Positions 6,050-47,622 of a stretch of 64,000 nucleotides of DNA are shown piece after piece. How positions within the stretch are numbered: position 1 is the first letter of the stretch; each line of letters starts with the position of its first letter. The DNA is taken from NCBI RefSeq assembly GCF_055900595.2, contig NZ_CM148325.1; one strand, 5' to 3'. Below the pieces are notes generated by a model, which made no database searches, was not told the origin of the DNA, and was given only the letters and a program-made list of their open reading frames with translations. The position numbers and the translations under genes were made by a program.

Positions 6050-7645
<1,596 letters not shown>

Positions 7646-28667: not shown

Positions 28668-28872
28668 GGACATAAATCCATTTTATCAATAAGATACAAG
28701 GAAGTGTCAGCTGACAAAAGGTATTCTATTTCATCTTTTGTCAACCATTCACGGCGCAAATATACGCCTTTTTTTGTGATCACTCCGGCTTTTTTCGATC
28801 TTCATACTTGTATGGTAGTAGCTCAGTTGCGTAGATTTCATGCATCACGACAAGCGATGCAAGGAATCGAAC

Positions 28873-38779: not shown

Positions 38780-38850
38780 CTGACAATAGCCATATCGAAT
38801 CGCTTCCGGCAACTCGTGAGTAAAAAGATTCGGTATCAGAAGAGGTGAGT

Positions 38851-39921
38851 ATGGCTAACGCCTGGCTCAGATTATGGCATGACATGCCAAATGACCCTAA
38901 GTGGCGAACAATTGCCAGGGTGTCAGGGCAGCCAATTGCAACAGTGATGGCAGTGTATATCCACCTCCTGGTGAGCGCGTCACGAAATGTCACGCGAGGT
39001 CACATTGATGTCACGACAGAAGATTTGGCAAGTGCGCTCGACGTGACAGAAGAGGTAATTGATTCAATTTTGCAGACGATGCAGGGGCGGGTACTTGATG
39101 GTGATTTAATCACTGGATGGGAAAAACGCCAGGTGCTGAAAGAGGACAACGGTAATATTTCGCAAACCGCAAAATCTCCGGCAGAGCGCAAGAGGGCGCA
39201 GCGAGAGAGGGAAAGAAAGCGGGAACAAAATGGCGATTGTCACGGCGAGTCACGAAATGTCACGCACATGTCACGACGAGTCACGACAGATAAAGATACA
39301 GATAAAGATACAGATCAAGAAGATCAAAACACTATGGTCCATGGCGTAAAAAACGCCGCGAACCAGGCAGGGGATGTTCAGACCGTCAATCTTGGTCAGC
39401 CAGCAGGCACGACACCGGAAGCCGATTCAGCGTATGCGCTGAAAGCCGATTCGGGCGCTGTGCAGCAGGTGATGACCGCAAGGCAGGAGCAATCACACCA
39501 ACTTCAGCAGCCTGAAGCCGATTCCGCCATTCAGCGGGAAGCCGATCGGGTAGTCCCGGAAAACACCGGGCAGCCTGTGGGACGAGTGGATTATCCTGAT
39601 GTGTTCGAACAGGTCTGGCGGGAATACCCGTTGCGTGCCGGGGCAAACCCGAAGAAATCCGCTTTCAGTGCCTGGAAGGCCAGATTACGCGAGGGGGTGC
39701 CACCAGAGGCCATGCTGGATGGCGTGAGGCGTTACGCAAGATACCTGGCGGCTACCGGGAAAACGGGAACGGAATTTGTTCAGCGAGCGACGACGTTTTT
39801 TGGACCGGACCGGAATTTTGAAAACCCCTGGTTGCTCCCGGTAAGCGGTACGAACAACCAGCGTTGTGTGAATCATATTTCTGAACCGGATACCGAAATT
39901 CCACCGGGCTTCAGGGGGTAA
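38851..39921 (+). CDS. Phage replication initiation protein (DUF1376/YdaU-like, lambda O-position) containing internal iterons
   Basis: ORF MANAWLRLWHDMPNDPKWRTIARVSGQPIATVMAVYIHLLV...; position after the cro/cII-like genes; internal phased GTCACG repeats. Confidence 0.6.
   Translation: MANAWLRLWHDMPNDPKWRTIARVSGQPIATVMAVYIHLLVSASRNVTRGHIDVTTEDLASALDVTEEVIDSILQTMQGRVLDGDLITGWEKRQVLKEDNGNISQTAKSPAERKRAQRERERKREQNGDCHGESRNVTHMSRRVTTDKDTDKDTDQEDQNTMVHGVKNAANQAGDVQTVNLGQPAGTTPEADSAYALKADSGAVQQVMTARQEQSHQLQQPEADSAIQREADRVVPENTGQPVGRVDYPDVFEQVWREYPLRAGANPKKSAFSAWKARLREGVPPEAMLDGVRRYARYLAATGKTGTEFVQRATTFFGPDRNFENPWLLPVSGTNNQRCVNHISEPDTEIPPGFRG
38979..39015. repeat. Iteron cluster A (4 x GTCAC(G/A) at 10-11 bp phasing) inside the replication gene
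   Basis: GTCACG at 38979, 38989, 39010 and GTCACA at 38999; shares 17-mer GTCACGAAATGTCACGC with cluster B. Confidence 0.55.
39239..39330. repeat. Iteron cluster B (5 x GTCACG at 10-11 bp phasing) plus adjacent A-rich tract; candidate phage ori
   Basis: GTCACG at 39239, 39249, 39259, 39270, 39280 followed by GATAAAGATACAGATAAAGATACAGATCAAGAAGATCAAAAC. Confidence 0.55.
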
Positions 39922-41669: not shown

Positions 41670-41823
41670 TTTTATATTGGCGAGGTGACGTGAGTTAAGT
41701 AGAATTGCTGCGGGTGCTTGAGGCTATCTGCCTCAGGCATGAACACCAACGGCAGATAGAGAAAAGCCCCAGTTAACATTACGCGTCCTGCAAGACGCTT
41801 AACATTAATCTGAGGCCAATTTC

Positions 41824-42036
41824 ATGCTAGACACATGTAGGTTAGCCTCTTACGTGCCGGAAGGCAAGGAGAAGCAGGCTATGAAGCAGCAAAAGGCGAT
41901 GTTAATCGCCCTGATCGTCATCTGTTTAACCGTCATAGTGACGGCACTGGTAACGAGGAAAGACCTCTGCGAGGTACGAATCCGAACCGGCCAGACGGAG
42001 GTCGCTGTCTTCACAGCTTACGAACCTGAGGAGTAA
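41824..42036 (+). CDS. mokD: Mok-like leader frame (N-terminally extended hok reading frame)
   Basis: ATG at 41824, MLDTCRLASYVPEGKEKQA-MKQQK...; same frame as hok, as in annotated mok/hok pairs. Confidence 0.5.
   Translation: MLDTCRLASYVPEGKEKQAMKQQKAMLIALIVICLTVIVTALVTRKDLCEVRIRTGQTEVAVFTAYEPEE
41881..42036 (+). CDS. hokD: Hok-family type I toxin (HokD/RelF-like)
   Basis: 51-aa ORF MKQQKAMLIALIVICLTVIVTALVTRKDLCEVRIRTGQTEVAVFTAYEPEE. Confidence 0.9.
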   Translation: MKQQKAMLIALIVICLTVIVTALVTRKDLCEVRIRTGQTEVAVFTAYEPEE

Positions 42037-42104
42037 GAGACTAAGCGGGGGAGAAATCCCTCGCCACCTCTGATGAGTCAGGCATCCTCAATGCACCCGC
42101 GCTT

Positions 42105-42126
42105 AACCCGCTTCGGCGGGTTTTTC
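42105..42126 (+). terminator. Rho-independent terminator after hok
   Basis: CCCGC-ttcg-GCGGG stem-loop followed by TTTTT. Confidence 0.7.
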
Positions 42127-42202
42127 TAGCATCTACCTGGTTGACAAAGTCGATGTTAAATGGAAATATGGTTGACACCAAAACAACAAGGATATTACGG
42201 TC

Positions 42203-42817
42203 ATGCAGAATTTATCTCAACAGTTGTTAGAAGCATATGACAAGGAGTGCCGCAAAGAGCTTTCGATCGCGTTAGCACAGGCTTATCTTCATTCGCATAT
42301 GAAGGCAAAAGAGTTTGGTTCTTTTTGGGCTCAAGCACAGTCATATTTGCGCTGGTTTTATGCCGATGCATTGCTTGAGAATGCGGCTAAGCGTGTGGGG
42401 CTGGATTTTGAAGTCGGTAGCAATGCTGCTAAAAATTGTAAACACATTGCGATTCACTCGAACAACTGGAAAATGACGGCACATCATTTATCGGGTAATG
42501 CGCCACTTCCTAAGCAGGCATTGTATAGAGCTGTTTACGCTAATCAAAATTATGAATTGAATTTTGGGGATGAAAATGCCGACTCCCTGGATGGGAGAGC
42601 GTCTGGTGGACATGTTTATATGTTACATGATGGCAGTAATCAGCACTTGTCCAAACTGAATTTAACTGTTCCTTCTTCGGATAATTACGGGATTCTTTAT
42701 ACTGAGTCTTTACCAATTATGACGATGGTAGAAGTTGAAGCAGAAAATGTGGATTCTGAGATTGAAGATAAAATCAAGATTCTTACCGAACAAATAATTA
42801 AATCACAGCAATCATGA
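42203..42817 (+). CDS. Uncharacterised protein, upstream partner of the HTH-peptidase gene (candidate toxin/effector)
   Basis: 204-aa ORF MQNLSQQLLEAYDKECRKELSIALAQAYLHSHMKAKEFGSFW...; RBS AAGGA; stop overlaps the next gene's start (ATGA); no motif recognised; AT-rich. Confidence 0.7.
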   Translation: MQNLSQQLLEAYDKECRKELSIALAQAYLHSHMKAKEFGSFWAQAQSYLRWFYADALLENAAKRVGLDFEVGSNAAKNCKHIAIHSNNWKMTAHHLSGNAPLPKQALYRAVYANQNYELNFGDENADSLDGRASGGHVYMLHDGSNQHLSKLNLTVPSSDNYGILYTESLPIMTMVEVEAENVDSEIEDKIKILTEQIIKSQQS

Positions 42818-43959
42818 GCATGAATATCGCACAAACACCATTTACTGATAAATCGTTTAATCCTCGTCGCCTTGAGGAGGCAAGAGAGGCAAAAGGGTTG
42901 ACGATGGCTGAACTTGCCAGAGTGCTCAATATTTCAAGACAAGCTATTTCGTCATTTGAGAAGGGGTTGAAGTCTCCCTCTGCTGATACACTTTCTGCAA
43001 TAGCCAAGGTGTTAGGATTTCCAGAACGATTTTTCTTAGCCTCCAGTGCTTCTCCATCTCTGGAGGGGGCGATTCATTTTAGAAGTCGTTCAACTGCGAC
43101 CAAAAAGGCTCGAGTTACAGGGAAAACACGTGGGCGTTGGGCGGCATTAATATTGGATGAATGTCTAAAATATGCTCAATTACCAGATGTGGTTCTGCCT
43201 GAATTCGATATTATTGATTTTGAGGTTCTGTCTCTATCTGATATTGAGGATATGTCCACCCAATTAAGGCGTTTTTGGGGGTTAGGTGATGGTCCAATAC
43301 TCAATTTAACTAGACTTGTTGAAAATAAAGGAATCGTGGTTTCTCATTTACCTTCTGGTGAGAAAGTTGATGCCTTTTCGTTCTGGCATAATGGGCGGCC
43401 TTTAATTATGTTAGATAGCTCGAAGACGGCTGTTCGCATGCGATTTAGTCTTGCTCATGAACTTGGCCATTTAATTATGCATAGGGCAGTGGAGGATGAC
43501 TACCTGAATGATAAAGAATTATTCGACCTGGTGGAGTTGCAGGCCGATTATTTTGCCTCCAGCTTTTTAATGCCAGCCACCACTTTCGGGCGTGAATTTT
43601 ATAGTCCAAATTTATCAGCGTTAGAACGATTAAAACTACGTTGGATTACATCTATCGGTAGTATTGCCATGAGGAGTCATAGCCTTAAGTTAATCAGCGA
43701 TAATCAGAAAAGCTATATATTTAAGCAATTAGCGCCATTCCATCGTAGGGAGCCGTTAGATGATGCAATCCCAAAAGAAGAGCCTGAGTTACTTAATAAG
43801 TTACTTTTACTTCTTGATAAGCATTCAATCATAAAGGTAACTGAGTTAACTGATATCTTTGCTCTTCCCTTAAATGAGTTATCTGCAATTACACGATTTA
43901 AAGAATCAGATATGATTCATTCTGACAATGTTATTTCATTTACCATAAAACAAAAATAA
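42814..43959 (+). CDS. XRE-family HTH fused to ImmA/IrrE-type zinc metallopeptidase
   Basis: 381-aa ORF; N-terminal HTH (...LTMAELARVLNISRQAISSFEKGLKSPSADTLSAIAKVLGF...) and HExxH motif in ...RFSLAHELGHLIMH...; translationally coupled to upstream gene. Confidence 0.8.
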   Translation: MSMNIAQTPFTDKSFNPRRLEEAREAKGLTMAELARVLNISRQAISSFEKGLKSPSADTLSAIAKVLGFPERFFLASSASPSLEGAIHFRSRSTATKKARVTGKTRGRWAALILDECLKYAQLPDVVLPEFDIIDFEVLSLSDIEDMSTQLRRFWGLGDGPILNLTRLVENKGIVVSHLPSGEKVDAFSFWHNGRPLIMLDSSKTAVRMRFSLAHELGHLIMHRAVEDDYLNDKELFDLVELQADYFASSFLMPATTFGREFYSPNLSALERLKLRWITSIGSIAMRSHSLKLISDNQKSYIFKQLAPFHRREPLDDAIPKEEPELLNKLLLLLDKHSIIKVTELTDIFALPLNELSAITRFKESDMIHSDNVISFTIKQK

Positions 43960-43970
43960 TTCTCATTCAT

Positions 43971-43994
43971 ACCCGCCTCGGCGGGTTTTTGTTT
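43971..43994 (+). terminator. Rho-independent terminator after the HTH-peptidase gene
   Basis: CCCGCC-tc-GGCGGG stem followed by TTTTTGTTTT. Confidence 0.75.
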
Positions 43995-44065
43995 TACGTA
44001 TTCTGGTTTACAATCCACAGGCCAGCCTGAACAACTGGCACCTGCTGCGCCAGCAGAGACAACCG

Positions 44066-45945: not shown

Positions 45946-46476
45946 TTATTGTTTAACCCATAATAATTCATTGACATTGAATCCCAACTTTTGAGCGGTT
46001 CGCACATAGTCTGCTTTTACTTTATCTGGAATAGTTGGGGTCCTTGCCAGAATCCATAGGTATTCTCTGTTCGAACCACTAACAAGAGCATACTTATACT
46101 CATCATCCAGTTTGATTACATTATAGCCACCATAGAAGGGGCCAAAAAACGAAACCTTCAACGCTGCAGTTTTAGTATCTCCAGTAAAGTATGCTTTACC
46201 TTCGCTCTCGCTCCATTTATTTTTCGTTGGATCGTATCCACGGTTAAGTACACGAATCCCTCCGTCGTTCCGTTTTCCATAAGTAGCGCTGACCTGCTCC
46301 AGACCACGTTCGAACCGGTTCTCGAGGCGAGCTATTTCATACCATTTTCCGAGGTAGCGGTTGGCGTCAAAATTTGTAATCGGCTGCACACCTTTAGGTG
46401 GTGTCGGGGCCTTACATGCTATAAGAGTGAAAGAGAGTGCAATGCCAGTCAACACAGGCCATAACTTCATAATCAA
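45946..46476 (-). CDS. Outer-membrane lipocalin (Blc homolog) lipoprotein, prophage moron
   Basis: 176-aa ORF with lipobox (...SFTLIAC) and lipocalin core FDANRYLGKWYEIARLENRFERGLE...YLWILARTPTIP; opposite strand to flanking late genes. Confidence 0.85.
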   Translation of the reverse strand: MIMKLWPVLTGIALSFTLIACKAPTPPKGVQPITNFDANRYLGKWYEIARLENRFERGLEQVSATYGKRNDGGIRVLNRGYDPTKNKWSESEGKAYFTGDTKTAALKVSFFGPFYGGYNVIKLDDEYKYALVSGSNREYLWILARTPTIPDKVKADYVRTAQKLGFNVNELLWVKQ

Positions 46477-46662
46477 TCCTGTACTTTTGATAGTTGAGAG
46501 TAAGTATGAAAGATAGATGATTACGACCGATCACTTAAAGAACTTTCATACTATATTAGGAATAGTCCATAACAGAAAAATTGTCAGTGATGACGTCAGA
46601 AAGGCAATTTATTCCGTGCACTACACAGTTTATGTGTTAATGAATTAGTCAAGGGGGAGGAT

Positions 46663-47622
46663 ATGATAAAAAAACCTGTGATTGGAATCAGCGGTTGTTT
46701 GGCCGGTTCTGCTGTTCGTTTTGATGGTGGTCACAAAAGAGCTGACTTTTTAATGGACAAATTAGTGGAATGGGTAACATTCAGACCAGTATGTCCGGAA
46801 ATGGCTATAGGGCTGCCAGTTCCGCGTCCTGCTCTACGTCTTGTGCGCTCGAAGCAAGGAAATATACGGATGTGTTTCAGCCACGACCAGAATGAGGATG
46901 TGACAGAGAGAATGACAGAGTTTAGTCGTTCTTATATGCACAAATTAAAGGATGTATCGGGGTTTGTGGTTTGTGCTAAATCTCCCAGCTGTGGCATGGA
47001 GCGCGTGCGTGTCTATGATGAAAATGGTAATCGAGGTCGTAAAGATGGAGTGGGACTATTTACGAGCACTTTGATGGAAAAGTTTTCCTGGCTACCGGTT
47101 GAAGAGGATGGGCGATTACATGATCCAGTGCTTCGTGAGAATTTTGTTGAAAGAGTTTTTGCTTTGCATGAGCTCAATCACCTTTACAAGGAGAAATTAT
47201 CAAGAAGAGAGTTATTAGCTTTTCATAGTCGTTATAAGCTTCAGTTGTTGGCGCATAGTCAGGCAGGCTATAAAGATATGGGACCATTTGTGGCTGCAAT
47301 ACACGAGTGGGCGGACCTTGAATCATACTTTGAGGTGTATCGTGATAAGCTGATGGCGATTCTCAGAAAACCTGCATCACGTAAAAATCACACGAATGTG
47401 CTGATGCATATACAGGGGTATTTTAGTAATTACTTAAGTACACGCCAGCGTAAAGAGTTGACCGAGGTTATACTTAACTATCGCTTTGGCACATTGCCTC
47501 TTCTTGCGCCGTTGACTCTGCTGAAGCATTATCTGGGTGAGTATCCTAATGATTACTTGCTTACACAGAATTACTTCGATCCCTATCCGGAAGAACTGGC
47601 TCTAAGACTGATGGTGAATTAA
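46663..47622 (+). CDS. DUF523 (TudS-like Fe-S) / DUF1722 (YbgA-like) fusion protein, prophage moron
   Basis: 319-aa ORF; N-terminus MIKKPVIGISGCLAGSAVRFDGGHKRADFL... with conserved cysteines; C-terminal half resembles YbgA/DUF1722; RBS AAGGGGGAGG. Confidence 0.7.
   Translation: MIKKPVIGISGCLAGSAVRFDGGHKRADFLMDKLVEWVTFRPVCPEMAIGLPVPRPALRLVRSKQGNIRMCFSHDQNEDVTERMTEFSRSYMHKLKDVSGFVVCAKSPSCGMERVRVYDENGNRGRKDGVGLFTSTLMEKFSWLPVEEDGRLHDPVLRENFVERVFALHELNHLYKEKLSRRELLAFHSRYKLQLLAHSQAGYKDMGPFVAAIHEWADLESYFEVYRDKLMAILRKPASRKNHTNVLMHIQGYFSNYLSTRQRKELTEVILNYRFGTLPLLAPLTLLKHYLGEYPNDYLLTQNYFDPYPEELALRLMVN

Follow-up and report, generated by a model that had tools for sequence, protein, structure and literature searches.

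The window analysed here, a 64,000-nucleotide stretch of one contig (NZ_CM148325.1 of NCBI RefSeq assembly GCF_055900595.2), represents an E. coli lambdoid (Qin/Rac-like) prophage. It carries two co-directional + strand genes that overlap by 4 nt and constitute a two-gene operon in which the toxin is encoded first. The upstream gene, rmrT (42203-42817), specifies a 204-residue protein that matches the RosmerTA toxin (PADLOC RmrT, E = 7.5e-10; phrog_35814, E = 3e-146) and for which we found neither a Pfam domain nor a PDB relative. The downstream gene, rmrA (42814-43959), encodes the 381-residue antitoxin (PADLOC RmrA, full length, E = 5.5e-102). These matches identify the module as RosmerTA, a toxin-antitoxin system already known to act against phages (Millman et al. 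2022; Ernits et al. 2023). The initial annotation had described an HTH-peptidase module at this position. The HTH-peptidase itself is confirmed, and the assignment can be refined in that gene 1 is the toxin RmrT and gene 2 the HTH-peptidase RmrA.

RmrA has an N-terminal XRE-type HTH domain (residues about 17-74, nt 42862-43035; Pfam HTH_3 in the identical protein P0001), whose recognition helix, helix 3, spans S41-E49 (nt 42934-42960) and is placed at residues 42-49 by an AF2 model. This is combined with an M78/ImmA Zn-peptidase domain carrying the motif HELGH (residues 215-219, nt 43456-43470; Pfam Peptidase_M78 in P0001), and the HExxH residues H215, E216 and H219 are invariant among 28 homologues. 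The AF2 model (pLDDT 88.6, pTM 0.87) is compact, with both domains in one 381-residue chain. Among PDB entries, the peptidase is closest in sequence or fold to CapP and IrrE/PprI, and the HTH domain to SinR, CapH, ImmR and DdrO. As judged from sequence and model, RmrA fuses a CapH/ImmR/DdrO/SinR-like HTH to a CapP/IrrE-like peptidase. In most related loci, an iterated profile search places a gene of the same RmrT toxin family upstream of rmrA.

Of 5,426 complete E. coli genomes, 40 contain the full module, as does phage Tritos (99.4% identity), which was the single close relative recovered when RmrA was compared with the phage collection by tblastn. We delimited the cassette by alignment with an empty-site phage, vB_EcoS-640R1, which shares the hok locus and the downstream genes with the window but lacks the module. 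The alignment diverges directly after the T-run of the hokD-locus intrinsic terminator (42105-42125, +; inverted repeat 42105-42111/42116-42122), placing the start of the cassette at about 42126. Homology resumes beyond the intrinsic terminator that closes the cassette (43971-43996, +; terminator scan), which gives a right limit of about 43997, and a terminator also directly follows rmrA in most related cassettes. The cassette is thus a moron-like autonomous unit, comprising its own promoter, rmrT, rmrA and a terminator, inserted after the hokD terminator.

Several other features of the prophage surround this unit. The sok antisense RNA gives a clear Rfam match upstream of the cassette (41712-41886), and the hok 3' UTR and terminator (42045-42126) give a sub-threshold match (26 bits, against a gathering score of 50) to isrK, a Salmonella Hfq-binding sRNA. 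A 358-residue ORF at 38845-39921, a putative replication-initiator gene, contains short tandem or direct repeats at 39286-39307, 39419-39453 and 39514-39548, namely ACAGATAAAGAT as a 12-bp unit and AAGCCGATTC recurring at 24 bp. By analogy with the lambda O gene, these could be origin iterons. A cargo slot downstream of the late promoter (45946-47622), flanked by the Q antiterminator gene and the lysis genes, contains blc (lipocalin) and a YbgA-family gene, these gene names being taken from the annotation of a matching strain.

Upstream of rmrT, a repeat finder identified an exact 9-mer, TGGTTGACA, in two + strand copies that we refer to as box 1 (42138-42146) and box 2 (42169-42177), 31 bp apart from start to start. 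The region reads, 5' to 3', ctacc, TGGTTGACA, aagtcgatgttaaatggaaata, TGGTTGACA, ccaaaacaacAAGGAtattacggtc and ATG. A word repeated 31 bp apart upstream of the two-gene module had been noted in the initial annotation and is indeed present, although the positions given for the longer strings were off by one base; their true positions lie one base to the right, with CTGGTTGACAAAG at 42137-42149 and ATGGTTGACACC at 42168-42179. The AAGGA ribosome-binding site of rmrT (42188-42192, +), 10 nt before the ATG, and the ATG itself at 42203 are as claimed there.

Both boxes overlap the core promoter of the operon. Box 1, our proposed operator O1, contains a perfect -35 hexamer, TTGACA, at 42141-42146. 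This is followed at 17 bp by a putative extended -10 region, TG-g-AAATAT (42161-42169, +), for which GAAATA at 16 bp is an alternative. The hexamer AAATAT matches the -10 consensus at 3 of 6 positions, retaining A2 and T6, and has the TGn upstream; relatives have TAAAAT at 16 bp from the -35. A consensus promoter scan of the window did not report the rmrT promoter because its -10 hexamer has only those three matches. Transcription is predicted to start near 42176. Box 2, our proposed operator O2, begins at the final base of the -10-like element and extends from about -7 to about +2 relative to the predicted start, such that the -35 falls within box 1 and the predicted +1 under box 2. TTGACA had been proposed to supply a -35 in each copy; the hexamer does occur in both, but only that of box 1 can serve as a -35.

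Markov simulations produce about 16 exact 9-mer pairs with a separation of 10-60 bp in every 64 kb, and the window itself contains 61 overlapping pairs of this kind. Because such pairs are common in the simulations, the repeat alone is not beyond chance. One-mismatch copies of TGGTTGACA are likewise not enriched in the window (15 seen, 16.4 expected). The repeat gains its significance from the conservation of both boxes and of the 31-bp spacing while the spacer and flanks diverge, as described below.

We also considered other sequence features that might be connected with the boxes. The window holds a single extra exact copy of TGGTTGACA, on the minus strand at 28739-28747, which extends to TGGTTGACAAAAG and has no partner box. 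We rejected this copy as cassette-related, as its location is the ynfA-rspA intergenic region of the core genome, found in 5,376 of 5,426 genomes; it is probably a chance occurrence or part of a host promoter. An RNA element over the boxes was also rejected, since Rfam gives nothing there and the fold of 42130-42230 is less stable than that of shuffled sequences (z = +1.14). A search for hidden palindromic half-sites gave just a weak TTGAC-AAA-GTyAA beside box 1, and box 2 does not have it. Outside the cassette, a box-like word, TGGTTTACA, is found at 44004-44012 (+). It belongs to the phage backbone, follows the hok terminator in the empty-site phage, and is missing downstream of rmrA from all 12 other cassette contexts. 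Both cassette junctions have near-identical terminators, ACCCGCyTCGGCGGGTTTT, with CTGGTT[G/T]ACAA 12-17 nt further on; at the right junction the latter could be insertion microhomology or the promoter of a downstream 92-residue gene (phrog_1212).

We compared the rmrT promoters of 13 enterobacterial lineages in which RmrA is 44-100% identical to that of the window (the fetched homologues being 88, 80, 70, 66, 63, 61, 60, 59, 54, 50 and 44% identical). The settings of these cassettes vary, and include the nin region, positions after Ead/Ea22 or after cI, the interval from Q to the holin or lysis genes, a chromosomal island, and sites neighbouring portal or terminase genes. The promoters nevertheless share a common order of (t)GGTTGACAAA, 16-17 bp, a -10-like hexamer, 1-2 nt, rGTTGAC, about 25 nt that include the ribosome-binding site, and ATG. 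The box 1 core GGTTGACAAA is kept in 12 of the 13 lineages, box 2 reads GTTGAC in 11 and GTTTAC in 2, and the spacing between the boxes is 31 bp in all 13. On the 5' side of TTGAC, the adjacent base is G in 12/13 box 1 copies and 13/13 box 2 copies, preceded by G or A. The -10-like hexamer is variously TAAAAT, TAAATA, AAATAT or AAAATT, with the columns G-N-AAA conserved. Information content is near maximal in both boxes and in G-N-AAA and falls to background in the spacer and flanks. As nothing is conserved upstream of box 1, the conserved unit begins at box 1.

Individual RmrA loci depart from this arrangement or add to it. Two loci whose RmrA has the helix-3 sequence SRQAIS are exceptions, one having no recognizable box 2 (L031) and the other an inverted box 2 (L022). 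The second site of L022 is a perfect 11-nt inverted copy (CCACTTGACAA ... TTGTCAAGTGG) and not a direct one. L016 has an inverted copy past box 2 (GGTTGAC-gttaatta-GTCAAC), an extra box is found at the same place in L012, and L010 has an additional box, GGTTGTCAA, 13 bp before box 1.

We extended the comparison to distant RmrA clades by scanning 100,044 species genomes, which yielded 80 mostly distant RmrA loci that, apart from one 70% identical Erwinia locus, are 27-40% identical to the RmrA of the window. We left out Erwinia L020, L090 and one locus whose upstream sequence was too short, and in the remaining 77 we counted exact, non-low-complexity 8-mer direct repeats in the expected toxin-promoter region. 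Eight of these distant loci have a repeat at exactly 31 bp. The expected number per spacing bin is about 0.5, and 40 simulations of 8-mer repeat spacing never placed more than 4 loci in any bin. An independent set of 68 IMG/VR viral loci has peaks at 31 bp (11 loci) and at 33 bp (7 loci). The geometry in the distant clades is TTGNNA, 17 bp, a -10, 2 nt and TTGNNA, and this layout is conserved among Enterobacterales, Paenibacillus, Clostridia, cyanobacteria and Burkholderiales.

The word used in the boxes varies by clade, is alike in both boxes of a promoter, and tracks helix 3 of the associated RmrA. Helix [ST]RQAIS goes with GGTTGACA in Enterobacterales and in the Bacillota locus L024, [ST]HQA[IV]S with GGTTGCAA (L026, L029 and L191), SQQAIS with GGTTGTAA (L021), and [ST]SQAIS with CTTGATA or TTGATG (L027, L032, L023, L187, L190 and L205). 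In Anabaena, TKQAIS is associated with AGTT[GT]ACT, and in Pseudomonas and L239, [ST]RQY.HK is associated with GGTTGACA at a spacing of 33-34 bp. At 14 beta- and gammaproteobacterial loci with helix SPATVSKW, the word is CGAAAY at exactly 31 bp; because CGAAAY is not -35-like, the conservation of box 1 is not attributable to sigma-70 alone. R, H, Q or S as the helix-3 residue after [ST] corresponds, respectively, to TTGAC, TTGCA, TTGTA or TTGAT in the boxes, a correspondence that is descriptive and draws on few independent lineages per class. Among Paenibacillus RmrA proteins that are mutually 62-72% identical, a Q-to-H change in helix 3 is matched by a T-to-C change in both copies of the box. 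This co-variation is indirect evidence, and it constitutes the strongest support for the HTH domain of RmrA itself as the reader of the boxes.

Some distant loci have other arrangements. In the Pseudomonas RmrA loci L042, L047, L049 and L063, the repeated unit is GTTGACA-N12-TGCA with a spacing of 33-34 bp. The upstream ORF of these loci has no match to the RmrT profile, and their toxin may come from a different family. Three boxes are present in L048 (ATTTGCAA twice and GATTGCAA) and in L079 (GTTGACA, ATTGACA and GTTGACA). Seven IMG/VR loci with helix 3 LSQSNLSKFEK (L234-L236, L238, L240, L243 and L249) have ATCAATAA repeated at 56-57 bp, which may reflect a different promoter type or shared ancestry among closely similar loci.

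The same pair of boxes also occurs in a second promoter context. An exact-pattern scan of IMG/VR with GGTTGACAAA-N22-GTTGAC gave 70 matches. Of these, 17 immediately precede rmrT-rmrA, and one more (L132) has an identical promoter on a contig that ends before the genes. By a rough estimate, about 29 of the remainder look like background. The others include about 19-24 contigs with a homologous promoter, which we term class 2 (for example ACTTGGTTGACAAAACGATAGCAAAATAGAAATTTGGTTGACGCGATTTTGTCAACC; L120 at 6225-6300, and L102, L103, L110, L114, L115, L124, L125, L127, L129-L131, L136, L138, L146, L147, L149, L150 and L156). Class 2 has the same boxes as the window, the same 31-bp spacing and the same sequence ahead of box 2. 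Its layout is TGGTTGACAAA, followed 31 bp on by TGGTTGAC and then by a third, inverted box, GTCAACC, so that GGTTGAC-N8-GTCAACC is formed.

Class-2 promoters lie in temperate phages, with the gene of a phrog_536 'transcriptional regulator' upstream and terS/terL downstream, and the terminase is 78% identical to Klebsiella and E. coli phage terminases. Class-2 box 1 encodes the terminal VDK codons of the phrog_536 regulator, and the boxes are kept across 5 sub-variants with diverged spacers. In L103, a cargo pair of 291 and 158 residues takes the place of terS past the promoter. The fetched flanks of class-2 promoters contain no RmrT, RmrA, RmrA-like HTH or [ST]RQAIS helix, and we found no close RmrA on the class-2 contigs. 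A BLASTN search of the phage collection with the class-2 promoter returned no match, and the window encodes no phrog_536 homologue. Since class-2 boxes occur without RmrA, another factor, or RNA polymerase itself, can select the same boxes.

Taken together, these comparisons leave little doubt that the two-box cis-element is functional. The initial annotation had put forward the paired boxes as a candidate operator of the HTH-peptidase, and this proposal is strengthened by the fixed 31-bp spacing around the -10, the independence from genomic context and the way in which the box words follow helix 3 of RmrA. We think it probable that RmrA binds the boxes and represses the RosmerTA operon through them as paired autorepression operators. 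The N-terminal XRE-type HTH of RmrA would occupy both boxes, which lie on the same face of the DNA because 31 bp corresponds to three helical turns. Bound RmrA would compete with sigma region 4 at the -35 and would block open-complex formation at +1. Synthesis of toxin and antitoxin would as a result be kept low and autoregulated, as in a classical type II toxin-antitoxin system.

XRE-type HTH dimers usually target inverted repeats; the boxes are direct repeats with no convincing second half-site. These head-to-tail sites would be contacted either by two HTH domains that the large peptidase/C-terminal body of an RmrA oligomer keeps apart, or by two cooperating units that bind separately. By analogy with ImmA/ImmR, CapP/CapH and IrrE/DdrO, the M78 peptidase would respond to a phage-derived signal and, once activated, might cleave off or destroy the HTH domain, derepressing the operon and freeing the toxin. 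The RosmerTA literature describes defence driven by the native promoter, a delta-rmrA construct that could not be introduced by transformation, and essentiality of rmrA wherever the system is present. Autorepression by RmrA fits all three observations.

Box 1 coincides with the sigma-70 -35 consensus, and its conservation alone therefore needs no repressor. The promoter could in principle be read by polymerase only, with box 1 a plain strong -35 and RmrA binding neither box. Box 2 would then be part of a promoter type or, like its counterpart in lambdoid late promoters, a '-35-like' element in the initially transcribed region that sigma-70 region 4 contacts. The sigma-70 -35 consensus is present in both boxes, and the class-2 two-box promoter occupies a late-promoter position in phages without RmrA; in lambda PR', TTGACT is repeated just past the -10, although at a spacing of 27 bp, compared with 31 bp in class 2. 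We nevertheless regard this explanation as unlikely. Sigma would not predict that other RmrA clades share a non-consensus word in both boxes (TTGCAA, TTGTAA or TTGATA), and the 14-locus clade with CGAAAY still has the 31-bp spacing. Conservation in both boxes extends to bases 5' of TTGAC, for which we know of no sigma-70 requirement. In addition, box 2 is not followed by a conserved -10-like pause element. The boxes could also be bound by something other than RmrA, whether a host protein or a phrog_536-type late regulator of an infecting phage, in which case the RosmerTA promoter would be phage-responsive. Consistent with this, the class-2 boxes are kept in 5 sub-variants immediately downstream of the phrog_536 gene, and the RosmerTA cassettes of L012 and L016, situated between Q and the holin gene, have an extra inverted box of the class-2 type. 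However, the window is without a phrog_536 homologue, the boxes are kept beside unrelated neighbours that include a chromosomal island, the changes in word track RmrA helix 3 across phyla, and class-2 box 1 is partly under coding constraint from the VDK codons. We therefore consider this alternative less likely still. The class-2 promoters keep both the polymerase and the phage-regulator explanations alive, whereas the multi-clade co-variation still points to RmrA as the protein that reads the boxes of RosmerTA promoters.

The two perfect -35 hexamers, 31 bp apart, might instead mark tandem promoters, each TTGACA being the -35 of its own rmrT promoter. This is highly improbable, as box 2 is only about 25 nt from the ATG, the start of its promoter would land within the coding sequence, and in 13 lineages the hexamer 15-18 bp past box 2 (TTACGG, TTTGTG, TTTGTC, ATCATT and others) is never -10-like. 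We assign the lowest likelihood to a chance match, a relic of duplication, or a recombination or insertion site of the cassette. Such an origin could be suspected from the frequency of chance 9-mer pairs within 60 bp, from the presence of TGGTTTACA past the right-flank terminator and in the empty site, and from the near-identical terminators at the two junctions. Yet every lineage retains both boxes at a fixed spacing, the right-flank TGGTTTACA is phage backbone that the 12 other cassette contexts do not share, and the region has no RNA structure (z = +1.14).

In addition to autorepression by RmrA, the class-2 promoters suggest possible cross-talk between RmrA and the phages that carry them. 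Unless the shared promoter simply reflects an exchange of promoter modules, prophage-encoded RmrA might directly repress the late or packaging promoter of superinfecting phages of this kind, or replicating phage DNA bearing the boxes might titrate RmrA off its own operator and so release the toxin. We consider this idea improbable; were it true, it would add a DNA-level sensing or exclusion step to RosmerTA defence. In either event, class 2 raises the question of why the same boxes stand at a phage packaging promoter. The proposed autorepression provides a precise, testable cis-regulatory model for a validated and widespread anti-phage system, and the boxes offer a handle on whether peptidase-driven loss of the HTH domain is the activation step.

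RosmerTA itself is already known, and the module in the window shares with the described system a toxin-first two-gene operon, an antitoxin that joins an HTH to an M78/ImmA Zn-peptidase, and carriage on a prophage. In the searchable literature we found no description of a RosmerTA promoter, operator, autoregulation or trigger, and no occurrence of the box motif in a RosmerTA context. What is new here is the two-box, 31-bp architecture together with its co-variation with helix 3.

RosmerTA resembles three pairs, ImmR/ImmA of ICEBs1, CapH/CapP of CBASS and other defence operons, and DdrO/IrrE of Deinococcus, in combining an XRE HTH with a COG2856/M78 metallopeptidase. Each of those pairs consists of two separate proteins, a repressor and a peptidase that inactivates it, whose genes usually diverge from the operon under control, whereas RmrA is a single fused chain encoded within the operon that it would regulate. 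CapH represses its operon from a conserved promoter site and is cleaved by CapP, and CapH-CapP fusions are mentioned in the CapH/CapP literature as uncharacterized. The CapH site also differs in form, being one 22-bp element upstream of the -35, unlike the two direct repeats over the -35 and +1 of RosmerTA.

In lambdoid late promoters of the PR' type and in class 2, the -35 and -10 are followed by another -35-like word close to +1. Class 2 is distinguished from RosmerTA promoters in that it drives packaging genes, occurs without RmrA and has a third, inverted box. Type II toxin-antitoxin systems with HTH antitoxins, such as MqsA and HipB, likewise have a DNA-binding antitoxin and operators over their own promoter elements. 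In classical type II systems, HTH antitoxins bind palindromes as dimers, whereas RosmerTA has head-to-tail repeats three turns apart and places the toxin gene first. The two-box element is best read as a putative new member of the autoregulated toxin-antitoxin operators, with an unusual direct-repeat, three-turn arrangement.
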